Origin: an uncultured delta proteobacterium
GTDB lineage: Bacteria > Desulfobacterota > Binatia > UTPRO1
NCBI GenBank assembly: GCA_963753325.1
Contig: CAVWBS010000003.1
Span: forward strand, 963,979-1,027,978
DNA length: 64,000 nt
Direction: 5' to 3'
Below the pieces are notes generated by a model. It ran no database searches, was not told the origin of the DNA, and saw nothing but the letters and a program-made list of their open reading frames with translations. A program made the translations under genes and the position numbers. This document shows, one piece after another, positions 39,183-62,103 of the stretch (positions are counted from its first letter, which is position 1; every line of letters begins with the position of its first letter).

Positions 39183-39301
39183 CGAGACGGCTCCTCTGAG
39201 ACAGTGCTGGGTCGCTGCAAGTGTGGCGAACGGCGCGTGTCTGCGCAACCGTGCCGGCGGCAATGGACCTCCCGGCGATCTTTCTGTACTTCCCCGGTGG
39301 T

Positions 39302-40186
39302 ATGTCGAAAGGACCGCTGCCGCCGCCGCGGAAGCTCGTCGATCCGCGGCTGCGCCGGACGATCGTCCGCGAGGGCGCGCCGCGCCGCGTCCTCGGCGAC
39401 ATCTACCATGCGCTGCTGAACGCGCACTGGTCGGTCCTGTTCGCGCTCTTTGCCGTCTACTATCTGGTGGCGAATACGTTGTTCGCGCTGGCGTATCTCG
39501 CGGGCGGCGACGACCTCGCGAACGCGCGCCCGGGCTCGTTCGCCGACGACTTCTTCTTCAGCGTCCAGACGCTGGCGACGATCGGCTACGGCTCGATCTG
39601 GCCGAAGACGCTGTATGCCAACGTGCTGGTGGCGCTCGAGGCCCTGATCGGCGTGACCGGCTTCGCCCTGGCCGCGGGCCTCTTCTTCGCCAAGTTCTCG
39701 CGGCCGACGGCACGGGTGCTGTTCAGCAAGGTCGCCGTGATCACGGCGCGCGACGGTGTCCCGTCGTTGATGGTGCGCATGGCCAACGAGCGGGCGAACC
39801 AGGTCGTCGAGGCGCAGGTGCAGGTGTCGCTCGCCCGCAGCGAGCGGACGATCGAGGGCGAGGAGGTGCGGCGGTTCTACGACCTGGCGCTCACCCGCAC
39901 GCGCACGCCGATCTTCCTGCTCTCGTGGACGGTCATCCATCCGATCACCCCGCAGAGCCCGCTCTACGGCATGACGCCCGAGTCGCTGCTCGAGACGGAG
40001 GGCGAGATCATCGTCTCGGTGACGGGCGTCGACGAGACGCTCTCGCAGGCGATCCGCGCGCGCTATTCCTATCTTCCCGACGAGGTGGTCTGGGGCGCGC
40101 GCTTCGCCGACATCATGTCGACCCTGCCCGACGGCCGCCGCCGCGTCGACTACACCCGATTCCACGAGGTCGTGAGCGCGAGCTGA
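39302..40186 (+). CDS. Inward-rectifier K+ channel (KirBac family)
   Basis: [14 protein letters not shown] selectivity filter, [27 protein letters not shown]. Confidence 0.93.
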
Positions 40187-40205: not shown

Positions 40206-40556
40206 CTAGGCGAACCCCCACTTCTGCTTGTTGGCCTCGATCTCCTCGGCGGAGGGCGGCGTCTTCTTCTCGGTCGGCGAGACGATGAAGTCGTCCTTGT
40301 GCTCCATCATCAGGTAGTTGAGCGGGCTGTCGTCGCTGAACACGGCCGGGACCGCGGACTCCTCGAAGATCGCCTGCCAGGGACACTCCGGCTCGCACGC
40401 GCCGCAGTCGATGCACTCGTCGGGGTGGATGTAGAGCTGGTTCGGAAAGGTGGCGTGGTCCGATCCCTTGTAGGCGTAGATGCAGTCGACGGGGCAGACC
40501 GAGACGCACGCGGTGTCGACGCAGTCGCGGCACAGACGGGTGATGATGTAGGTCAT
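40206..40556 (-). CDS. Dicluster (7Fe-type) ferredoxin
   Basis: [14 protein letters not shown] (Cx2Cx4Cx3C) and [12 protein letters not shown] (Cx2Cx2Cx3C). Confidence 0.93.
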
Positions 40557-48423: not shown

Positions 48424-49122
48424 TCATCGGTGGCCCGTGACGCCGCGGCGCGGGCAATAGGCCGTGATCGGACAACGGCTGCAGTGCGGCGAGATCGGCC
48501 GGCAGAGGTGCTGGCCGAACGCCACCAGCAGGTCGTTGATCTCGAGCCAATGCGCCGGCGGCAGCTTCCGGCGGAGCGCCCGCTCGGTGTCGTTCGGCGT
48601 CCGCGTCCGGACGTAGCCGAGGCGGTTGGTGATGCGATGCACGTGGGTGTCGACGCAGATGCCGGGCGCGCGGAAGCCGAGCGTGAGGACGAGGTTCGCG
48701 GTCTTCCGCCCGACGCCGCGCAGGGTGAGAAGGGCGTCGAGGTCGCGCGGCACCTCGCCGCCGAAGCGCGCCAGCAACGCCCGGCACGTGTCACGGATGG
48801 CGCGCGCCTTGGTGCGGTAGAAGCCGACCGGATAGATGAGGCGCGCGATCGTCGCCTCGCGCAGCCGCAGCATCGCCGCCGGCGTCGCGGCGCGGGCGAA
48901 GAGCCGCCGCGAGGCGGCGGCCGTGGTCTCGTCCTTGGTCCGCAGGCTGAGGATGGTCGAGATCAGCACCCGGAACGGATCCCCGGTCGTGTCGGCGATG
49001 AGCGTCACGGCCGGCGCGCCCCACGCCGGCGCCTCGCGCCGCAGGATCGCCATCACGGGTCCGATCTCGTCGCGTCCCAGCGCCCGACGACGCGGCGCGA
49101 TGGTCGTGCGCGGGAGGGCCAC
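48424..49122 (-). CDS. nth: Endonuclease III
   Basis: LISTILSLRTKDETT, LRGVGRKTAN HhH, VDTHVHRI, C-x6-C-x2-C-x5-C. Confidence 0.95.
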   Translation of the reverse strand: MALPRTTIAPRRRALGRDEIGPVMAILRREAPAWGAPAVTLIADTTGDPFRVLISTILSLRTKDETTAAASRRLFARAATPAAMLRLREATIARLIYPVGFYRTKARAIRDTCRALLARFGGEVPRDLDALLTLRGVGRKTANLVLTLGFRAPGICVDTHVHRITNRLGYVRTRTPNDTERALRRKLPPAHWLEINDLLVAFGQHLCRPISPHCSRCPITAYCPRRGVTGHR

Positions 49123-49225
49123 GCCCCCCTTATCGCCCGCCATCGACGGCGGCTCAACGCGCGCCGTGCGCGGCGCGTCCGCAGCGGGCGGGCGCGTTGC
49201 GTGGGCTCCGGGCATCGACTAAGCG

Positions 49226-50428
49226 ATGTCGGTGGCGCGCCGCCCTCTCCCTCGCGACTTCTACCTCGTCACCGCCGCCAACTTCGTCTTCTTCCTCAAT
49301 TTCGCGTCGTTCTTTCTCCTGCCGCTGCATCTGAAGGCGCTCGGGGTCACCGAGCGGACGATCGGCTACATCATGGGCACCGCGGGGTTCGCGGGGCTGT
49401 GCGTCCTGCCGTTCCTCGGGACGCTGCTCGACCGCGTCGGACGCCGCGGCTTCGTCACGGCCGGGGCGCTCACGATGGCCCTCGCGTCCTTCGCCTACAT
49501 CCTCGTGCCGGGCACCGGGCCGGTGGTGTACCTCCTGCGCATCGTGCAGGGGGTGAGCTTCACCTCCGCCTTCGTCACCGCGTCGACCCTGGCGGTCGAG
49601 CTGGCCCCGCTCGAGCGCCGCGGCGAGGCGCTCGGTATCTTCGGGATCTCGACGCTCACCACGCACGCGGTCGCGCCGGCGCTCGGCGAGATCGTCGCCC
49701 GCCGGTTCGGCTTCGAGGCGCTGTTCGCGGTCGCCGGAAGCCTCGGCCTCTGCGCCGCGGCGTTGACCCTGCGCATCCATGCGCCCCGGCGGCCGCGGCG
49801 CGCCGCGAGCGACGCTCCCGCGCCCGGTCTGCCGCACGCGGCGACCCTCTGGCTCGGCGCGGCGACGATGATCGCCTGCGGCATGGGGTTCGGCGCCGTG
49901 CTGACCTTCGTGCCGACCTTCGTGCATGCGATCGCGCTCGATCGCGTCGCGCCCTTCTTCGTCTCGTACACCGCGGCCGCGGTCGGCGTGCGCCTCGTCC
50001 TCGGCGGTCTCTCGGATCGGGTGGGGCGCCGGCGCGTGCTGCTGCCCTCGATCGTGCTCCTGGCGCTGTCGGTGCTCGCGCTCGGCCACGTACACTCGAT
50101 CGTCGGGCTCGTGTCGGTCGGCCTGCTGTTCGGCGCGGGCCAGGGGATGGTCTATCCCACCGCCAACGCGCTCATGGTCGATCTGAGCCGGCCCGAGAAC
50201 CTGGGGCGGGTGCAGACCCTCTTCAGCGGATCCTTCAGCGTCGGCGTTGCGGCGAGCGCGTTCATCTTCGGCGGCGTGATCGAGCGCTTCGGCTATCCGG
50301 CCATGTTCACGATGGCGGCGGGTTGCATCGCCGTCGGGGGCCTCCTGCTGTGGTCGGGTCGGGACGTCGGCGTGGCCGTGGCGACGCCGGCGCAAGACGC
50401 CTTGACGCTCGTCCAGGCGGAACCGTAG
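49226..50428 (+). CDS. MFS transporter
   Basis: About 12 TM segments; GTLLDRVGRR and GGLSDRVGRR motifs. Confidence 0.92.
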   Translation: MSVARRPLPRDFYLVTAANFVFFLNFASFFLLPLHLKALGVTERTIGYIMGTAGFAGLCVLPFLGTLLDRVGRRGFVTAGALTMALASFAYILVPGTGPVVYLLRIVQGVSFTSAFVTASTLAVELAPLERRGEALGIFGISTLTTHAVAPALGEIVARRFGFEALFAVAGSLGLCAAALTLRIHAPRRPRRAASDAPAPGLPHAATLWLGAATMIACGMGFGAVLTFVPTFVHAIALDRVAPFFVSYTAAAVGVRLVLGGLSDRVGRRRVLLPSIVLLALSVLALGHVHSIVGLVSVGLLFGAGQGMVYPTANALMVDLSRPENLGRVQTLFSGSFSVGVAASAFIFGGVIERFGYPAMFTMAAGCIAVGGLLLWSGRDVGVAVATPAQDALTLVQAEP

Positions 50429-50458
50429 TATTTCGATCGCGCGCTATGGCGCGCGTAC

Positions 50459-50941
50459 ATGGCCGTCACGTTTCCCTCCGAAGCCTTCTTCACGGCGCTC
50501 GCCGCGGCGATGGCGCGGGCGCACGACCGCTTCCGTGCGCTCGGGTTCTTCGACGTGACGATCGGCATCCGCGTGCTCCCCGACGCGCCGGGCGGCGGCG
50601 AACGGCTCTACGTGCTCGCCTTCGAGGTGTTCGAGTGCACGCGGGCGCAGGAGGTGGCGGCCTTCGCGCCCGCGCACGTCGATTTCGTGCTCGAGGGCAC
50701 GCTCGGCACCTGGCGCGAGATGATCGAGAACATCCGCGCCAACGGCGCCGCCGACGTCGCGCACTCGATCAACACGCTCACCCACTTCGGCGAGAAGCTG
50801 ACGCTGCGCTACGACGACCCCGACGGTCACGACAAGCTCTACCGCTTCGCCGAGAGCGTGCAGCAGTTCTTCGATCTCGCGGCCACGATCGACGGTGTCA
50901 CCTACGAGCCGGCCCCGCGCCGAGCGGCCCCGGCGGCCTGA
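50459..50941 (+). CDS. Small protein with probable SCP2 (sterol carrier)-like fold
   Basis: FPSEAFF..L N-terminus and DFVLEG..GTWREM pattern typical of SCP2-like proteins; fold is inferred. Confidence 0.6.
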   Translation: MAVTFPSEAFFTALAAAMARAHDRFRALGFFDVTIGIRVLPDAPGGGERLYVLAFEVFECTRAQEVAAFAPAHVDFVLEGTLGTWREMIENIRANGAADVAHSINTLTHFGEKLTLRYDDPDGHDKLYRFAESVQQFFDLAATIDGVTYEPAPRRAAPAA

Positions 50942-50956
50942 CCGCGGAGGATTCCC

Positions 50957-52101
50957 ATGAGCTATCTCAGCACCAAGGACTTCCTCGACGACGAGGACTT
51001 CGTCGATCGGTGGCAGTACACGATGCGCACCGGCGAGCTCGATCTCTCCTGGATGCACGCCGCCACCAAGGAGGCCGTGTGCACGGCGCAGAACGCGCGC
51101 CGCGGGCTCACGTTCCGCGATCTCGACGTGGCCGGCTACGGCTACAGCAGCATGCCCGAGCTGGCCAGACGGAACCGCAGCTTTGCGCCGCGCGGCGCCG
51201 AATCCCTCTCGGCTGCCCCGACCTCCAGGCGGAGGTCAACCGCAAGAGCGAGGTGTGGGCGTACAACGTCGAGGGCTACTACGAGGAGGCGATGTCGCGG
51301 CAGTGGAACGCCACCACGGACGTGCCCTGGGCCGACCTCGCCGCGACGGAGCTGCCGGACGACATCGCGCGCGCCTACTCGCAGCTCCTGACGTTCCTCA
51401 CCGAGGTCGAGATGATCGCGACCGACGTGCCGGCCAAGTGGCTGGGACGGCTGAACGCCGACTTCTTCGAGGTGAAGAACTTCATTGCGACGCAGGTGAT
51501 GGACGAGGCGCGCCACGCCGAGGTCTTCCGCAAGCGCGCCCTCACCACCGGCTACGGCCTGATGAAGGCGAGCCCGGCCAACGAGATCAACCTCAAGTTC
51601 CTGCGCGACGCCGACAGCTTCTCGGAGTCGTCGACCACCCTGCACCTGCAGGCCGAGGGCATGGTGCTCACGCTCTTCCGCTTCAGCGAGTACATCGCGC
51701 CGACCGAGGGCGACAAGAAGCTCTTCCGCCTCGTCATGCAGGACGAGGCGCGGCACGTCGGCTACGGCATGCAGCACCTGAAATGGGTGATCGATCACTT
51801 CCCCGAGAAGCGGGAGATCATCCACAAGCACCTCGACGAGGCCGAGAACTTCGTCTTCGGCGGCGCCTACGCCGTCGAGGTGATGGAGCCCTTCATCATC
51901 CTCAGCGGCAAGGGCATGAAGAAGGAGAACATCGAGCAGGGCTGCAAGATCACCGCGCAGTTCCAGGTGAAGCAGGTCGAGGAGTACTTCGAGCGGCTCG
52001 AGAAGTGCGGCCTGCCCGAGCGCAGGCAGCGCTCGCAGCTCTACAAGGCGCTCGAGCTCGGCCAGGCCAACCTCGCGGCGATGGGGCTGCGCACGCACTG
52101 A
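50957..52101 (+). CDS. Ferritin-like di-iron protein A, complete ligand set (-1 frameshift as assembled at about 51201)
   Basis: TEVE...DEARH...AEG...DEARH; adding one base at GAATC gives GAEIPLGCPDL, colinear with GSEIWGKLPDL in the paralogue, and a 381-aa ORF. Confidence 0.88.
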
Positions 52102-52157
52102 GCCGCGATCGGTTCATCGTGTAGCAACGCGATGCCCGGCGGCGGTAGAGTCCGGCC

Positions 52158-52636
52158 GTGATCGACTTCGAGAGCGACCGCGCCATTCGCGAAGTGATCG
52201 CCCGGTTTGCCAACAGCTTCGATGTGAAGGACTGGGGTGCCCTCGGCGATTGTCTGGCCGACCGGATCCAGACCGACTATTCCGATCTGCGCGGCACGCC
52301 TCCCGAGACGCTTCCGAGAGACCGTTTCGTCGAGGCGAGGCGATCGGCGTTGCAGGACCTGCGCACGCATCACCTCGCCGGCAACGTCGAGATCATGGGC
52401 GTCGACGGCGCCGCCGCCGCGAGGGTGTCGATGGCCATCTATCGACGGACGGCCGCCGGGCAGCGGTTCGACAGTCACTGTGTGTACACGCTCGGGATGG
52501 AGCGGATCTCGGGCCGCTGGCGCATATCGTCGATCATCCAGCGCATCCTCTGGAGCGACGGCGACCCCTCCATCACGCGGGTGTCGGCGACACCCCGACC
52601 ACACGCCACCCGGGGACGGAAAAGGGGAGCGCATAG
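52158..52636 (+). CDS. NTF2/SnoaL-like protein (probable -1 frameshift near 52574)
   Basis: IREVIARFANSFDVKDW...THHLAGN...WRISSI; adding one C gives ...GDPSIHAG and a stop at 52636, otherwise the frame reads through to 53372. Confidence 0.8.
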
Positions 52637-52712
52637 CCGGGGCGCTGATCGCGCGCCCGTCTCCGCTGCTGCGCGTACCCCGGCGCGATGCTCGTCGACG
52701 GTGTCGGGTACG

Positions 52713-53210
52713 TCAGCTGTCCTTCGCGAAGAAGCCGTGCACCATCACGTTCGGGACGGACTGCGCGCCGCTGCCGTCGAAATCCAGCACGACGACGCAG
52801 AGCAGGACCCCGCTCTTCACGACCGATCCGATCGGCAGATTCACGAGCACGCCCGCGTTCCCCTGCGACACGGCGTCCGTGAACGTTACGATCGAGGTGA
52901 CGTTGCTCTGGTCCGGAAGCTCTCGGAAAAGGCTGACCTCGTAGCGATGGCCGGTCGGGATCAGCTGCGCGCCGATCTCGGCAGCCGTCACGACGAACAC
53001 GTGCTTCGGCGCGATCGTGAACGAGGCCGTCGTGCCATCGGATTTCTGGATCCGGTTCAGCACGTACGCGTGCGCGTTGATCGGACACGTGGCCTGGTAG
53101 TCCGTGGTGAGGTCGGCGAGCTGACTGGCCTTGGTCGGCGTGAGCGTCGCGACCGCCGTCGACGCGAAGCCGAGGAGCGAAACGACCCCGATGACGAGCG
53201 AGCGATACAT
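52713..53210 (-). CDS. Secreted beta-rich hypothetical protein
   Basis: AAGGAGG RBS, signal peptide MYRSLVIGVVSLLGFASTAVA, ends VHGFFAKDS. Confidence 0.75.
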   Translation of the reverse strand: MYRSLVIGVVSLLGFASTAVATLTPTKASQLADLTTDYQATCPINAHAYVLNRIQKSDGTTASFTIAPKHVFVVTAAEIGAQLIPTGHRYEVSLFRELPDQSNVTSIVTFTDAVSQGNAGVLVNLPIGSVVKSGVLLCVVVLDFDGSGAQSVPNVMVHGFFAKDS

Positions 53211-53368
53211 GCGAAGACCCTCCTTTGTCCGTTGAGTTGCCGTTGGTTTCTTGCGAATCGCGCGCGATGTTCGCCACGGCGGATGTCGAGTGTCAAATCG
53301 GATCGTGCGTCCGCCCTGCCGCGCGGACCGATGGTGGGACGGGACCGTGCTTGCTACGCTCCGCGGCC

Positions 53369-54827
53369 ATGACGATCACCGGCGCGGCGTTCCCTGCCAG
53401 CTCCGCGGACCTCTGCTTCCTCCCGGCGCGTGATCTCGCCGGGCTGATCCGTGGCCGCGAGGTCTCGGCGCGCGAGGTGATGGCGGCCCATCTCGGACGG
53501 ATCAACGAGTGGAATCCGCGCCTCAATGCGATCGTCGCGAGGCTCGACGACGATGCGTGTCTCGCGCTGGCCGACGAGGCCGATCGCCGTCTCGGGCGCG
53601 GCGAGCCGGTCGGCCCCCTCCACGGGCTGCCGTTCGCGTTCAAGGATTCTGGAGGCCGCCGTCGGCTTTCCCATGACGCTCGGCTCGCCGATCCTGAAGA
53701 CTTTCATGCCGACGGAGGATACGGTCGTCGTCGAGCGCCTGCGTCGGGCCGGCGTTGTGCCGATCGGCAAGACGAACGTGCCCGAGTTCGGCATGGGCTC
53801 GCACACGTACAACCCGGTCTACGGTCCGACGCGGAATCCATACGACGCGACGAAGAGCGCCGGCGGCTCGAGCGGCGGCGCCGGGGCGGCGCTCGCCGCC
53901 GGTCTCCTGCCGCTCGCCGACGGCAGCGACTACGGCGGCTCGCTGCGCAATCCCGGGAACTTCAACAACGTGGTCGGCTTCCGGCCGACGGTTGGCCGCG
54001 TGCCGCTCGCGCCGCATCCGTTTCCGTTCGTCGGCTTCCTGGTGAAGGGTCCGATGGCGCGCTCCGTCGCCGACGCGGCATTCCTCCTGAGCGTGATGGC
54101 CGGCGCCGACGCGCGTGACCCGGGCTGCTTCCCATCCGACCCGACGGTCTTCACGCGGCCGCTGGCGCGCGACCTGAAGGGCGTGCGCATCGCGTGGTGT
54201 CCCGACCTCGGCGGACTTCCGCTCGACCGGCGGATACGGGCCGTCCTGGACGCGCAGCGCACGACGTTCGAGCAGCTCGGCTGCGAGGTCGAGGACGCCG
54301 CGCCCGACCTGACCGGTGCCGAGAAGGTCTTCCTCGACCTCCGCATGTGGATGACGCACAACCGCCTCGGTTTCCTGCTCGACACGTACCGCGACCAGAT
54401 GAAGCCCGAGGCGGTCTGGGAGGTGGAGACGGGAGCGCGATTGAGCGGCGCGGACGTGGCGCGGGCGACGGTGCAGCAGGGCGAGATCATGGAGCGGATG
54501 CGCCGCTTCCAGGAGCGCTACGAGTTCGTCGTCTGCGCGGTGAACCAGGTGCCGCCCTTCGACGTCGCCCTCGACTGGCCGAAGGCGATCGACGGCGAGC
54601 CGATGGAGCACTACCTCGCGTGGATGCGCTCCGCCTACTGGATCACGGTGACGTTCTGTCCCGCGATCTCGGTCCCCGCCGGATTCACCGCCGACGCCTT
54701 GCCCGTGGGGCTCCAGATCGTCGGCCGGTACCGTGACGACTTCGGCGTGTTGCGGATCGCGCACGCCTTCGAGCAGGCGACCGGCTTCGGCCGCCGCCGC
54801 CCGCCGGAGGCGCCCTCCCGTGCTTGA
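53369..54827 (+). CDS. Amidase signature family protein (+1 frameshift as assembled at about 53647)
   Basis: GPLHGLPFAFKD, GKTNVPEFG, AGGSSGG, DGSDYGGSLR; removing one T from AAGGATTCTGGAG gives KDLEAAVGFP and a 485-aa ORF. Confidence 0.92.
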
Positions 54828-54864
54828 CGAGCGCCGGATCCTTCTCGTATCGCCTCGATGAGCC

Positions 54865-55977
54865 GTGGCCTACTTCGCCGAAAGGAACTTCTTCGAGGAC
54901 CAGGAGCTGATGGAGCTCGTCCAACGCGTGATGTCGGGCGACCTCACGCTCACCTGGTGGGACGCGAAGACCGAGCGCGTGCGGGCCACCGTGCACGACG
55001 CGCGGCGCGGGCTCACGTACGCGGACTGCAATCTCGGCTCGTACGGTTGGGACGACATCCCCGAGTTCGTTCGCGACCGCTACAGCATGGCGGCGCGCGG
55101 CTCCGAGATCTGGGGCAAGCTCCCCGACCTCGGCTACACCGTGAACCGCAAGAGCGACGTCTGGGCGGACAACGTCGCCGAGCTCTACGAGGAGTCGAAG
55201 TCGCGCCGCTGGGCGCCGGCCGTCGACCTCGACTGGACGGCGCTTCCGAGCCGCGCCATGACGCCCGAGCTGGAGGCGGCGATGGCGCAGCTCTGCACCA
55301 CCCTCGAGGAGATCGCCCTCGTGGCGATGGAGATGCCGGCGCGCTGGATCTTCTCGATCAACCAGGAGTTCCTCGAGCTGAAGAGTCTGCTCTGCGCGCA
55401 GATGATCGACGAGGCGCGGCACGTCGAGGTCTTCCGCAAGCGGGCGCTCGCCGGCGGCCAGGGGCTGAAGCGTGCCAGTGCCAACATCGAGCAGGCGCTG
55501 AAGGAGCTGCTGTTCGCCGAGACGTTTCCCGAGGGTGCGTTCGCGATGAACGTCATGCTGGCGACGGTCGTCGCGCAGGTGCTGGCGCACGCCGCCGCGA
55601 CGGCGCGGCTGCCGCTCGACGCGCAACTCTTCCGCCTCTGTCTGCAAGACCTCGGGCGAACCCTCGCCTACGGCATGGGACAGGCGCGCTATTGCTTCGC
55701 GCAGCAGCCGCACCGGCGGGCGCAGCTCGACGACTACCTCGATCGCACCGAGCATTGCCTCTTCGGCGTGATCGGCGCAACCGAGCTGCTCGAGCCGCTC
55801 ATCGTGCTCTCGGGCGGCGGCACGACGCGCGAGCAGGTCAAGGTCGGCTGCCGGCACGTCGACGCGCTCATGCGAACGGCGATCGGCGAGTATCTCGGGC
55901 GCTGCGACGCGCTCGGGCTCGATGCGCGGCGGCATACGAGCCGTCTCGCCACGCGCCTCACTGCTACGAACGTTTAG
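54865..55977 (+). CDS. Ferritin-like protein B, full-length paralogue of protein A with degenerate di-iron site
   Basis: Colinear with A (ARRGLT, PDL..VNRKS.VW..NV...YEE...R.W); retains one DEARH but has EIA, MLA and QDLGRT where A has EVE, QAE and QDEARH. Confidence 0.88.
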   Translation: MAYFAERNFFEDQELMELVQRVMSGDLTLTWWDAKTERVRATVHDARRGLTYADCNLGSYGWDDIPEFVRDRYSMAARGSEIWGKLPDLGYTVNRKSDVWADNVAELYEESKSRRWAPAVDLDWTALPSRAMTPELEAAMAQLCTTLEEIALVAMEMPARWIFSINQEFLELKSLLCAQMIDEARHVEVFRKRALAGGQGLKRASANIEQALKELLFAETFPEGAFAMNVMLATVVAQVLAHAAATARLPLDAQLFRLCLQDLGRTLAYGMGQARYCFAQQPHRRAQLDDYLDRTEHCLFGVIGATELLEPLIVLSGGGTTREQVKVGCRHVDALMRTAIGEYLGRCDALGLDARRHTSRLATRLTATNV

Positions 55978-56214: not shown

Positions 56215-57237
56215 ATGATGAGAAAGACGATCGTGTGGTGGGTGTTCGGTTTCGTGCTGGGCATGGTTTCCGGAATGGGCACCGCTCGGGCGGAGCTGAC
56301 GAACTGCTCCCCCAAAGTCGACAACTTCGTCCTGTTCGTCGACCAGTCGGGTTCCATGTACCAGCAGCATCAAGATGCGAAGGAACTCAAGGAGATCCTG
56401 GTCAAGAAGGTTCTCGGCGAGATGAACGATGAGATCCCACAGCTCGGCTACAAGGGAGGCCTGGACCTGTTCGCGCCCTTCGCGACGACGGTGCCGATGG
56501 CGCCGTATTCCCGGGCGGCGATGGGCGCGGGGATCGCGTCGATCCCCGACAGCCAGCCGGTGTTCTGGCGCAAGACGCCGATGGGCGCGGGCATCGGAGA
56601 TCTCAACGGCGTCGTGGGCGGCCTCAACGGAAAGACGGCGGTCATCATGTTCTCGGACGGCGAGCAGAACGAAGGCCCGGATCCGATCGAGACGGCGCAG
56701 CAGCTGGTCAGCGCGCACCCGGACCTCTGCATTCACGTGGTCTCGTTCGCCGACTCGGCCTACGGCACGTGGTACAACCTGCGCGTCAGCAGCGCCGGCA
56801 AGGGATGCCGGTATGCGGAGGGGACGGAGCTCCTCGCCAACGGGCCCAAGCTCGAGCAGTTCGTCCGTGACGTCTTCTGCGGGGAGCCGGTGAAGCGGAA
56901 GCTCGTCCTCCGCGGCGTGAACTTCGACTTCGACAAGGCCACCATCAAGCGCGAAGGGGAGCCGGTGCTCGACGAGGCCATCCAGGCGCTCAAGGAGCAG
57001 CCCGACGTGCGGATCTCGGTCGAGGGGCACACCGACTCGATCGGGACGGATGCGTACAACCAGCGTCTGTCGGAGCGTCGAGCCGAGGCCGTGGCCGACT
57101 ATCTGGCCGCGGGAGGCATCGCGCGCAGCCGCATGTCCGCCAGGGGGTATGGCGAGTCGAGGCCGGTCGCGAGCAACGCGACCGAGGACGGGCGGGCCCA
57201 GAACCGCCGCGTCGAGTTCGGGCTCCTCGCGAAGTAG
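56215..57237 (+). CDS. VWA-domain + OmpA_C exported protein
   Basis: Signal peptide, VDQSGS MIDAS, KTP, FSDGE; VNFDFDK...EGHTDSIG...NRRVE. Confidence 0.9.
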   Translation: MMRKTIVWWVFGFVLGMVSGMGTARAELTNCSPKVDNFVLFVDQSGSMYQQHQDAKELKEILVKKVLGEMNDEIPQLGYKGGLDLFAPFATTVPMAPYSRAAMGAGIASIPDSQPVFWRKTPMGAGIGDLNGVVGGLNGKTAVIMFSDGEQNEGPDPIETAQQLVSAHPDLCIHVVSFADSAYGTWYNLRVSSAGKGCRYAEGTELLANGPKLEQFVRDVFCGEPVKRKLVLRGVNFDFDKATIKREGEPVLDEAIQALKEQPDVRISVEGHTDSIGTDAYNQRLSERRAEAVADYLAAGGIARSRMSARGYGESRPVASNATEDGRAQNRRVEFGLLAK

Positions 57238-57753: not shown

Positions 57754-58722
57754 ATGGCGATCGGCGTCGGCGTGATCGGCGGCGGAAAGCATGGCGAGCG
57801 CTATCTTCGTCACGTGTCCGACGTTCCGGGACTGTGTCTGGTGGCGCTCTGTCGGCGCGATCGCGCACGCGGCGAGCGGCAGGCGCGAGATGCCGGGTGT
57901 CGTTTCCACGATCGCGCGGAAGCGTTGATCGCGGACGCCGACGTGGCGGCGGTCGTGCTCGTCGTGCCGCCGACCCTGACGGTGCGGTTCGCGAGCGCCG
58001 CCGCAGCGGCTGGCAAGGCGGTGCTGATCGAGAAGCCGCTCGCGCCGACGCTCGCCGACTGTCGAACGATCGCCGACGCCGTGGCGCGCGCCGGCGTTCC
58101 CGCGATGGTGGCACACACGCTGCGCTTCAACCCGACGGTGATGGCGCTGCGCGCCGCCGTCCCCACGGTCGGACCGCTGCACGCGGCCGTGCTGACGCAG
58201 CGCTTCGAGACGTCGTCGCTCGGCTGGCTCGACCGCCGCGCCGAGGCGGGCGGTGGGATCATCCTGCACACCGGCGTCCACAGCTTCGATCTGCTCCGCC
58301 ATCTGACCGGCGACGAGCCGCAGCGCGTGAGCGCCCGGGCGGCGCGCGTCGCGACCCGGGAGACCGAGGACAATTTCGTCGCGACGGTGGAGATGGCGAG
58401 CGGTCTCCTGGCGCTGGTCGGCGGCTCACGCGCGACCATCGGGCGCTCCGGCGCGATCGAGCTCGCCGGGCGCGACGCCCAGCTGGCCGGCGATCACGTC
58501 CACGCCCGCGCGGTGCGGCTCGTCGGCACCACCAGCGAGGCGCTGCCGCTCGGCCCTCCCGTGCAGACGGTCGAGGTGACGCTGCGCGAGTTCGCGGCCG
58601 CGATCGACGCCGGTCGCGCGCCGGCGATCGGCATCGACGACGGCGCCGCCGCGGTGGCGATCGCGGACGCCTGCTATCGCTCGATCGCCAGCGGGCGGGC
58701 GGAAGCGGTCGAGCGTCTCTAG
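57754..58722 (+). CDS. Gfo/Idh/MocA family oxidoreductase
   Basis: VGVIGGGKHG, VLIEKPLA, AHTLRFNP, GGIILHTGVHSFDL. Confidence 0.92.
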   Translation: MAIGVGVIGGGKHGERYLRHVSDVPGLCLVALCRRDRARGERQARDAGCRFHDRAEALIADADVAAVVLVVPPTLTVRFASAAAAAGKAVLIEKPLAPTLADCRTIADAVARAGVPAMVAHTLRFNPTVMALRAAVPTVGPLHAAVLTQRFETSSLGWLDRRAEAGGGIILHTGVHSFDLLRHLTGDEPQRVSARAARVATRETEDNFVATVEMASGLLALVGGSRATIGRSGAIELAGRDAQLAGDHVHARAVRLVGTTSEALPLGPPVQTVEVTLREFAAAIDAGRAPAIGIDDGAAAVAIADACYRSIASGRAEAVERL

Positions 58723-60482: not shown

Positions 60483-61112
60483 ATGGCTTCCGCGTCCGCC
60501 CGGATCGAGAACGCCGTCGGCTCGCGACAGGACCGGCGCCGCGCGCGCACGCGCGCCGAGCTGCTGGCCGCCGCCAAACGGCTCCTGGCCTCGAAGGGGT
60601 TCCACGGCACCAAGATCGCGGACATCGCCGCGGCCGCCGACGTCGGTACCGGCACGTTCTACCTGCACTTCCCGACCAAGGACGCGCTCTTCTCCGATCT
60701 GGTGCGGGAGACGGCGCTGCGTGCGCGCGAGGAGATCGACCGCGCCAAGGAAGCCGTCAGCGATCCCCGCGACCAGGCGCGCGCCGCCACCGAGACCCTC
60801 TTCCGCTTCGCCGCCCGCAACCGCGACGTCTTCAAGATCCTCTTCGGACAGGGCGCACAATTCAACGAGCTGCTGCACGAGGTGCATCAGCTCTTCATCG
60901 TGGAGACGGAGGAGAACCAGGCCCGTGGCATCGCGGCGGGCGCATTCAAGCCCTTTCGGCCGGCGATCGTCGCCCAGGCGGTGGTCGGCATGGTGTCGCA
61001 GGTCGTGTCGTGGTGGCTCGAGCACGACGACATCGCCATCGAGGAAATCACGGACACGGTCACGCGCATGCTGCAGGAAGGCATCGCGATCAAGGAGAGC
61101 ATCCATGAATGA
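60483..61112 (+). CDS. TetR/AcrR family regulator
   Basis: KGFHGTKIADIAAAADVGTGTFYLHFPTKDAL. Confidence 0.94.
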   Translation: MASASARIENAVGSRQDRRRARTRAELLAAAKRLLASKGFHGTKIADIAAAADVGTGTFYLHFPTKDALFSDLVRETALRAREEIDRAKEAVSDPRDQARAATETLFRFAARNRDVFKILFGQGAQFNELLHEVHQLFIVETEENQARGIAAGAFKPFRPAIVAQAVVGMVSQVVSWWLEHDDIAIEEITDTVTRMLQEGIAIKESIHE

Positions 61113-62103
61113 GCCAGCCCAGGGCGTCGAGGCGCTTGTTACCGTCGAGGACTTCACCGAGCGACTCTCGACCACCTTCGACACCTGCTACACGTGGAGC
61201 TACGACAGCTTCAAGGTCGGCCTGCGCAACCTCTACGAGAAGGCCAAGCAGAACCAGTGGGACTCGGCGACCGCCATCGCCTGGAACACCGACGTCGATC
61301 CCGAGGCGGAGAACCTGCCCGACATGAACAACCCGCTCTTCGGGACCGCCATGTGGGCCAGGTTCACCGAGGCGGAGATCCGCAAGTTCCGCCGCGAGCA
61401 GCTGTCGTGGAGCCTCTCCCAGTTCCTGCACGGCGAGCAGGGGGCGCTGCTCGCCACCGCGCAGATCGTCGACGCGGTGCCGTGGATGGAGGCCAAGTAC
61501 TACGGCGCGACGCAGGTCATGGACGAGGCCCGTCACGTCGAGACCTACGACCACTACCTGCGCGACAAGATCCAGAAGGAGTATCCGATCAATCCGCATC
61601 TCAAGGTCCTGCTCGACCAGATCCTCACCGACTCCCGCTGGGACATGAAGTATCTCGGCATGCAGATCCTGGTCGAGGGCCTGGCGATGGCGGCATTCGG
61701 CTTGATGGAGAAGTTCTCCAACGAGCCGCTGCTGAAGCAGCTCACCCAGTACATCATGCGCGACGAGTCGCGGCACGTGGCCTTCGGCGTGCTCTCGCTC
61801 GAGACCTACTACCGGGATCTGAGCGAGCGGGAGCTGCGCGAGCGGCAGGAGTTCGCCTACGAGGGCTGCCGCCTGATGCGCGATCGGCTCTACGCCGTCG
61901 AGGTGTGGCAGGAAATGGGCCTGCCGATCGAGGAGACGCGCGAGATCGTCATGAGCTCGGAGATCATGCGCGAGTTCCAGAAGATGCTCTTCTCCAAGGT
62001 CGTGCCGAACGTGAAGCGCCTCGGCCTCCTCACGCCGTGGCTGCGCGAGCGGTTCCACGAGCTCGACATCCTCAAGTGGGAGCACGAGGAGCCGAGTGCA
62101 TAA
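61105..62103 (+). CDS. Ferritin-like di-iron protein (AurF N-oxygenase-like family)
   Basis: LYEKAKQNQW, SQFLHGEQGAL, DEARH, VEGLA, DESRH; start overlaps the TetR stop. Confidence 0.9.
   Translation: MNEPAQGVEALVTVEDFTERLSTTFDTCYTWSYDSFKVGLRNLYEKAKQNQWDSATAIAWNTDVDPEAENLPDMNNPLFGTAMWARFTEAEIRKFRREQLSWSLSQFLHGEQGALLATAQIVDAVPWMEAKYYGATQVMDEARHVETYDHYLRDKIQKEYPINPHLKVLLDQILTDSRWDMKYLGMQILVEGLAMAAFGLMEKFSNEPLLKQLTQYIMRDESRHVAFGVLSLETYYRDLSERELRERQEFAYEGCRLMRDRLYAVEVWQEMGLPIEETREIVMSSEIMREFQKMLFSKVVPNVKRLGLLTPWLRERFHELDILKWEHEEPSA

Follow-up and report, generated by a model that had tools for sequence, protein, structure and literature searches.

An R2-like di-metal protein encoded with an SCP2-fold protein and a ligand-deficient paralogue in Binatia

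Structures of R2lox-type proteins have been available since 2009. These proteins co-purify with fatty acids (PMC9314684) and, according to a remark in the same paper, the R2lox genes of haloarchaea lie together with genes for ferredoxin and sterol carrier protein and are induced on hexadecane (Kumar et al. 2020, cited in PMC9314684). VlmB is a di-iron enzyme with aliphatic substrates that forms the azoxy group of valanimycin by oxidising a hydrazine (PMC11705231). Here we describe a module of three genes, S, A and B, in a 64,000-nt stretch of the genome of an uncultured member of the Binatia (contig CAVWBS010000003.1; hereafter the window). S denotes the SCP2-fold protein, A a di-metal protein with a full set of ligands and B a ligand-degenerate paralogue of A. 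An earlier interpretation made from the letters of the window alone (the sequence-only reading) had called the three a candidate undescribed di-iron oxygenase. This was too strong, as the cluster of R2lox, ferredoxin and sterol carrier protein is already published (PMC9314684), although apart from that remark a literature search found no combination of SCP2 with a di-iron or ferritin-like enzyme. The module looks like a variant of that arrangement, a probable oxidase resembling R2lox that has SCP2 and ferredoxin partners and, in this case, a dead paralogue. The window has a G+C content of 70% and is part of a 1.77-Mb contig; the genome comprises 4.92 Mb in three contigs, with an estimated completeness of only 76%.

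The S, A and B genes

The features of the module are as follows, with the basis of each in brackets (ORF, open reading frame; GC3, G+C content at third codon positions).

50402..50431, plus strand: TTGACG-18-TAGTAT, 28 nt ahead of S, resembling a sigma-70 promoter (consensus match only)
50459-50941, plus strand: S, 160 aa, predicted SCP2 fold, no Pfam or NCBIfam family (ORF)
50957-52101, plus strand: A, whole, frameshifted in this assembly
50957..51202, plus strand: N-terminal 82 codons of A (frame 2), ending ...APRGAE (GC3 frame signal, translation)
51200..51204, plus strand: frameshift site in A, one base missing (DNA and protein alignments)
51202..52101, plus strand: C-terminal 299 codons of A (frame 1), starting IPLGCPDL..., with all six metal ligands (homologue alignments)
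54865-55977, plus strand: B, 370 aa, GTG start, ligand pattern A-E-H-A-L-T (ORF, alignments)

The coordinates and spacing given in the sequence-only reading were confirmed: A starts 15 nt past the stop codon of S, with a GGAGGA Shine-Dalgarno sequence in front, and B follows A on the same strand at a distance of 2763 nt. Two sigma-70-like sites were found against 0.3 expected in shuffled sequences.

The same reading had treated A as one gene with a complete di-metal site. The site is indeed complete, but A is not a single ORF here, two frames having been silently spliced at ~51202. Numbered along the spliced, frame-restored protein of 381 aa (82 + 299 codons), the ligands are E152, E184/H187, E234 and E264/H267, i.e. 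E/ExxH/E/ExxH with Glu first, and this EEHEEH pattern is present in all A-type relatives. Where R2 proteins have their radical Tyr, four residues past H187, at least 90% of 58 family members have Phe (F191); such a Phe, together with Glu as first ligand, is a signature of R2c and R2lox proteins. A and B also have in common a family-specific N-terminal extension of ~95 aa.

No family in Pfam or NCBIfam was reached above its cut-off by S, A or B, and A gave only weak, sub-threshold matches to the R2 small chain, DUF455 and R2lox models. The NCBIfam R2lox model NF006200 scored 27.3 bits with A and 22.2 bits with B against a cut-off of 194, and PF00268 (Ribonuc_red_sm) scored 22.6 bits against a cut-off of 33.6, which leaves A outside class I R2 as defined by that model. 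As a single sequence against PDB, A reached at best only E 0.028. The structure library was searched with a family profile built from 58 diverse members, for which the best match was the four-helix core of the VlmB homologue 6d9f (E 6.6e-11); Geobacillus R2lox (4hr0 and others, ~5e-8), Sulfolobus R2lox and Rv0233 (E 0.0066) were also matched, and phenol hydroxylase reached only E 0.36. Neither A nor B had a match to PaaA_PaaC (PF05138) at E <= 0.1 or to Phenol_Hydrox (PF02332), Paa genes are absent from the neighbourhood of the module, and there is no gene for an effector (MmoB/DmpM) or a reductase. The matches to the VlmB homologue, R2lox and Rv0233 therefore point to an R2-like family and not to PaaA/PaaC or the soluble di-iron monooxygenases, in agreement with the sequence-only reading, which had assigned the sequences to neither family. 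Judged by these profiles, the family of A is one of R2-like di-metal carboxylate proteins, related to yet distinct from R2lox and VlmB. The residues of the R2lox cross-link are not kept: in A the Tyr is replaced by Leu229 and the Val by Ala155 or Met153; both positions were located by counting from the ligands (Val, ligand Glu +3; Tyr, third ligand Glu -5), the HMMER alignment being locally shifted.

A and B align end to end, as had been noted from the sequence, with 36.7% identity over 362 residues (E 6.7e-88), including the N-terminal extension of ~100 aa. At the ligand positions of A, B has A, E/H, A and L/T, so that four of the six ligands are lost by the very substitutions that had been listed. 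B has 777 homologues, of which the best 120 (57-93% identity) are all without E1, E3, E4 and H2; in the B proteins of Binataceae the first ExxH is lost as well, giving patterns such as QALAAQ. Since these 120 are uniformly degenerate and the ratio of nonsynonymous to synonymous substitution rates (dN/dS) is about 0.3 (0.26-0.39), B is not a recent pseudogene but a conserved clade under purifying selection, as the sequence-only reading had supposed. The B and A clades are sisters in a maximum likelihood (ML) tree (98 in the Shimodaira-Hasegawa-like approximate likelihood ratio test). Moreover, D183 and R186 are kept in at least 90% of the 58 members, active and degenerate, H187 is nearly invariant, and D263 and R266 are invariant in all 58, the degenerate ones included. 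The conservation of Asp and Arg beside the lost ligands indicates that B has kept the fold and its second-sphere network.

S, for which 605 homologues were found, belongs to none of the Pfam SCP2 families by sequence. An AlphaFold2 model (mean predicted local distance difference test score, pLDDT, 79) has the SCP2 alpha/beta fold, and a Foldseek search with it returned the Thermus SCP2-like structures 1wfr and 2cx7 (E 1.5e-6 to 1.4e-5, template modelling score 0.61-0.75), followed in the next ranks by yeast and insect SCP2. A profile of S found the same two Thermus chains in PDB weakly (E 0.14). On the strength of the predicted structure, S has an SCP2 fold, which bears out its earlier description as SCP2-like. 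Its invariant polar and His/Asp motifs are N105-T108 and Y118-K126 (with H124, D125 and K126), and residues 100-109 form a conserved loop that is disordered in the model. These invariant polar motifs suggest a specific docking of S on A, and an effector-like role is possible. The dN/dS of S is 0.33-0.38 in the two closest comparisons and 0.54 against the more distant L014.

Distribution of the module and a proposed mechanism

Named homologues come almost all from metagenome-assembled genomes (MAGs) of 'Candidatus Binatia'. S, A and B are adjacent in all 29 Binatia loci that have enough flanking sequence, as the sequence-only reading would have it, and neighbouring genes often overlap or are only a few nt apart from stop to start (in L001, S and A share 4 nt). 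An A orthologue was present in 37 of 151 sampled Binatia genomes, with B on the same contig in about 35 of the 37; outside this class, 117 genomes of the phylum had none, which makes the module an accessory one of patchy occurrence. In the genus and family of the window A and B lie 2.1-2.8 kb apart, so the insertion is old and B has persisted in spite of it. The order is S-B-A in MAGs labelled Myxococcota or Spirochaetota.

In Acidimicrobiia the arrangement is A-S (34 loci), with a 2x[4Fe-4S] ferredoxin gene directly after S in 30 of these. No degenerate paralogue was found anywhere in four whole Acidimicrobiia genomes, which contain full-ligand members only. B thus cannot be the defining subunit that it had been taken for, A being widespread without it in the wider family, an outcome that the sequence-only reading had itself named as speaking against its proposal. 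The occurrence of S with a ferritin-like protein in most branches of the family indicates that A and S are the functional core, and the Acidimicrobiia loci extend this core to A, S and a ferredoxin donor, with B as a lineage-specific addition.

A second clade has its own trio, A2 (EEHEEH), B2 (degenerate) and S2 in that order, in two loci (L116, 241-3361; L117, 3896-6727), and B2 and S2 alone in a third (L111). In the ML tree A1 groups with B1 and A2 groups with B2, which suggests two duplications. Degenerate members of the second clade often have D/K/H in place of E/E/H, and the trio of L117 adjoins genes for a P450, a Rieske ferredoxin and a luciferase-like monooxygenase. In Latescibacterota and Gemmatimonadota (L083-L090) a full-ligand A-like gene occurs, beside which no SCP2-like partner was detected; it is followed by a gene for a 138-aa cupin_2 protein and preceded by one for a divergent CLC chloride channel with CBS and TrkA_C domains. 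In a sister clade (P0399 and 17 other representatives; L112, 6001-7266) the metal site is complete, a TusA-like domain precedes it at the N-terminus and the C-terminus has a conserved ...HTPNFM motif. Neighbours in L112 encode two phosphonate-binding-like proteins and an acyl-CoA-dehydrogenase-like protein.

These distributions bear on whether B belongs to the enzyme at all. The whole enzyme could be A and S, as an A2 homodimer with its SCP2 partner, and B a neofunctionalised metal-free protein concerned with, for example, ligand binding, sensing or chaperoning and possibly using S. The four Acidimicrobiia genomes with A, S and ferredoxin and without B would fit this, as would the genes, one of them on the opposite strand, inserted between A and B in the genus of the window, the rate of evolution of B, which is about twice that of A, and locus L111 (6001-7714), where a degenerate member and S lie without an adjacent full-ligand partner. 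We nevertheless think it unlikely, given how constantly B adjoins A in Binatia (about 35 of the 37 genomes having A, and every locus examined) and the active/degenerate pairs in two clades. Among the sequences examined there was no B1-type protein without A, a statement that does not extend to a systematic screen of B-clade homologues for an adjacent A. Furthermore, the second-sphere residues and N-terminal extension kept in B fit a preserved partner in an R2-type dimer, as in Rnr2/Rnr4.

The reading that we favour is of an R2-like di-metal module in which A would be the O2-activating catalytic subunit, working at its complete E/ExxH/E/ExxH site. S would be a dedicated partner, which from its modelled fold most likely binds a hydrophobic substrate and passes it to A, or else gates the channel of A. 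A hydrophobic substrate is suggested by the SCP2 fold, the fatty-acid ligands of R2lox and the haloarchaeal R2lox gene cluster with its response to hexadecane, and a lipid or alkane-like molecule would probably be hydroxylated, desaturated or oxidised in some other way. The sequence-only reading had also named acyl-CoA substrates, to which nothing points. Electrons would come from a ferredoxin, encoded in the operon in Acidimicrobiia and supplied by an unlinked donor in Binatia. The dedicated ferredoxin of Acidimicrobiia implies reductive O2 activation with turnover, as in acyl-ACP (acyl carrier protein) desaturases and aldehyde-deformylating oxygenase. B would have arisen by duplication of A, losing the metal site and keeping the fold. 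R2-type proteins are dimers, so the simplest role of B is that of a metal-free partner; by analogy with Rnr4 and Rnr2, it most likely takes the place of one of the two protomers in the ancestral R2-type homodimer, so that A and B would form a heterodimer.

As donor, the sequence-only reading had put forward the ferredoxin at 40206. Its product, a 214-aa protein with a 4Fe-4S domain encoded 10 kb away on the opposite strand, has cysteine motifs alone in common with the module-linked ferredoxin and is not its orthologue, and that suggestion is dropped. The source genome has no clear orthologue of the module-linked ferredoxin.

Several observations weigh against the mechanism as a whole. No ferredoxin or reductase is linked to the module in Binatia, and in no lineage examined does a conserved neighbour name a pathway. 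The polar motifs of S are not typical of a passive lipid carrier and may point to another role. In the genus of the window, the opposite-strand gene in the spacer implies that A and B are probably not co-transcribed, and L111 has a degenerate member without an active partner beside it. Separate origins for the two degenerate clades do not reach significance: the ML tree disfavours one common origin of every degenerate member (delta lnL 47.8) without rejecting it (approximately unbiased test, p-AU 0.053). Finally, the AlphaFold2 model of A, made from a shallow alignment of 16 sequences, was unusable (pLDDT 48).

Some of the same evidence could be read as A not oxidising a substrate at all. A might be a protective protein of the ferroxidase or peroxidase type, or a radical- or metal-cofactor-generating R2-like subunit for an unlinked partner, with S as an effector. 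Besides the lack of conserved pathway genes, the invariant polar motifs and disordered conserved loop of S would suit such a role, and R2lox itself has as yet no known function (PMC9314684). We consider this quite unlikely. SCP2 is a fold for hydrophobic ligands, the nearest characterised relatives oxidise substrates (VlmB) or bind lipids (R2lox), and a dedicated ferredoxin indicates repeated reductive turnover. A radical-generating subunit is further disfavoured by the Phe at the radical-Tyr position and by the neighbours examined, among which there was no large subunit (R1) of ribonucleotide reductase (RNR), although no search was dedicated to one.

Taken together, these data slightly favour the complete scheme, with A catalytic, S as substrate partner, electrons from a ferredoxin and an A-B heterodimer, over its being wrong in some part. 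A bolder generalisation, that S/A(/B) systems are distinct and widespread ferredoxin-driven Mn/Fe or Fe/Fe lipid or alkane oxidases, with an SCP2-fold protein as obligate delivery subunit and a passage from homodimer to active/dead heterodimer possibly made twice, is a tentative one that we regard as possible and on the whole doubtful.

Frameshifts and neighbouring genes

The genes around and between those of the module are as follows.

48424-49215, minus strand: endonuclease III
49226-50428, plus strand: major facilitator superfamily (MFS) transporter
52158..52600, plus strand: NTF2-like protein of the SnoaL_4 family, end approximate (Pfam PF13577, E 1.3e-14)
52713-53210, minus strand: 165-aa protein with an N-terminal hydrophobic, signal-peptide-like segment, no family found
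53369-54827, plus strand: amidase, frameshifted (Pfam Amidase, E 8e-79; NCBIfam PRK07486)
56215-57237, plus strand: OmpA-family protein
57754-58722, plus strand: GFO/IDH/MocA NAD(P)-oxidoreductase (Pfam; synteny)
61111-62103, plus strand: AurF-like di-iron protein (Pfam PF11583)

In the window A occupies two frames, the GC3 signal switching frame at ~51200 and the break lying at ~51202. A DNA alignment shows one nucleotide deleted there, GA-ATC in the window against GAGATC or GAAATT in relatives, which read unbroken across the site (RGAEIPxGCPDL). The intact relative P0123 matches the N-terminal part with 70% identity over its residues 1-90, and the C-terminal part is 77-95% identical to relatives of 375-381 aa. 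Four genomes of the same genus have A, three of them with a full-length, uninterrupted match (1-376). A strong GC3 signal is retained in both halves, with dN/dS of 0.22-0.28 on the N-terminal side of the break and 0.12-0.17 on the C-terminal side. The amidase gene, 2.4 kb downstream of A, is likewise frameshifted, by an extra T at ~53647 (GGATTCTGG) that parts ...LHGLPFAFKD from LEAAVGFPMTLGS... and is the second indel within 2.5 kb. Given this second frameshift, the intact A of the same genus, the low dN/dS and the 76% completeness of a near-closed assembly, the break in A is most likely an indel error of long-read assembly, and the module is therefore probably functional in the source organism.

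Two other explanations of the break were considered and set aside. Programmed -1 frameshifting is rejected, as a slippery heptamer is lacking, the frame of relatives is unbroken at this site and in other long-read MAGs the breaks are at other positions. Both frameshifts, in A and in the amidase gene, lie where the intact sequence would be GATC; a GATC-associated nanopore error is a weak explanation, GATC being present 630 times in the 64 kb.

Were the frameshift real, A would be a pseudogene and the module would be decaying in the source organism, its operon split by insertions and S and B left as remnants. The interruption of A and the 2.8-kb insert between A and B are what such decay would produce. 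We consider this very unlikely, because the neighbouring amidase frameshift, in a 3-contig assembly of such completeness, speaks for indel errors, because both halves of A retain their coding signal and selective constraint (dN/dS 0.12-0.28), and because A is uninterrupted in three of the four same-genus genomes. Moreover, the one of these four with A and B on one contig has a similar gap, so the insert is old and tolerated.

Neither the SnoaL_4 gene nor that of the 165-aa protein is present in the loci of relatives examined. The SnoaL_4 ORF (52158-53372) continues for ~260 codons past its domain and overlaps the opposite-strand gene; either its stop was lost through another indel or the tail is non-coding read-through. 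In the Binatia family of the window the A-B spacer repeatedly holds varied inserted genes (L003, 9354-10568; L036; G163; G270), an AAA_15/AAA_21 ATPase in L003 and SnoaL, a putative secreted protein and an amidase in the window, and it looks like an insertion hotspot.

Downstream of B, a GFO/IDH/MocA gene follows in 8 Binatia loci of the order of the window (L001, L003, L012, L013, L014, L016, L019 and L036), and the order S-A-B-GFO-AurF is found in three related loci (L014, L016 and L019). The source genome has at least six AurF-like paralogues (L007-L011 and the gene at 61111-62103). Elsewhere in the window, the gene of the 4Fe-4S protein at 40206 adjoins one for a KirBac-type inward-rectifier potassium channel (IRK_C and Ion_trans_2; 39221-40186).

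Comparison with known systems

R2lox is among the nearest relatives. It shares with A the R2-type ferritin fold (family profile match at 5e-8), the six-ligand E/ExxH/E/ExxH site with Glu first and the Phe at the radical-Tyr position, it binds long-chain fatty acids, and the partner set of haloarchaeal R2lox is that of the Acidimicrobiia A-S-ferredoxin loci. However, A scores far below the NCBIfam cut-offs, is without the Tyr-Val cross-link residues and carries the ~95-aa N-terminal extension, and R2lox has no known ligand-less paralogous partner such as B. VlmB and its homologues (6d9f, 8wvr), the best solved-structure match to the family of A, offer a substrate-oxidising di-iron enzyme for comparison. 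Here the similarity is remote, the partner is the membrane protein VlmO, encoded with VlmB in antibiotic gene clusters, and the system has neither an SCP2 partner nor a degenerate paralogue.

For the relationship of A to B, a parallel is offered by yeast Rnr2-Rnr4, a heterodimer in which the active subunit is joined by a paralogue with lost metal ligands that is an obligate structural and assembly partner. Both pairs belong to the R2 superfamily and combine an active with a ligand-less member, the pairing of A with B being our proposal; A differs in having no radical tyrosine, and the neighbours examined, with no dedicated search, included no RNR large subunit. The phenylacetyl-CoA epoxidase, the analogy drawn in the sequence-only reading, resembles A/B/S in its catalytic di-iron subunit (PaaA), ligand-less homologue (PaaC) and small third protein (PaaB). 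There is no sequence-family relation, PaaB does not have an SCP2 fold, and the module is without a PaaE-type reductase or a CoA-pathway context.

In ubiquinone biosynthesis, COQ9 with COQ7, a di-iron carboxylate enzyme, and the SCP2 proteins UbiJ/UbiT with the ubiquinone hydroxylases are cases where a lipid-binding accessory protein presents a hydrophobic substrate, the same logic as proposed for S. However, COQ9 is TetR-like, UbiJ partners flavin or U32 enzymes, and no quinone-biosynthesis genes lie near the module.

Binatia are noted for alkane and methyl-compound metabolism. The partners found here are an SCP2-fold protein throughout, a ferredoxin in the Acidimicrobiia loci and, for Binatia, a metal-free twin. 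Together they amount to a minimal system open to reconstitution, which makes the chemistry testable, and they point to the oxidation of hydrophobic substrates in soil and sediment bacteria. If A-B heterodimers form, they would be a bacterial parallel to Rnr2/Rnr4. If the module is indeed a lipid or alkane oxidase, its characterisation would give the R2lox branch of the ferritin superfamily its long-missing physiological function.

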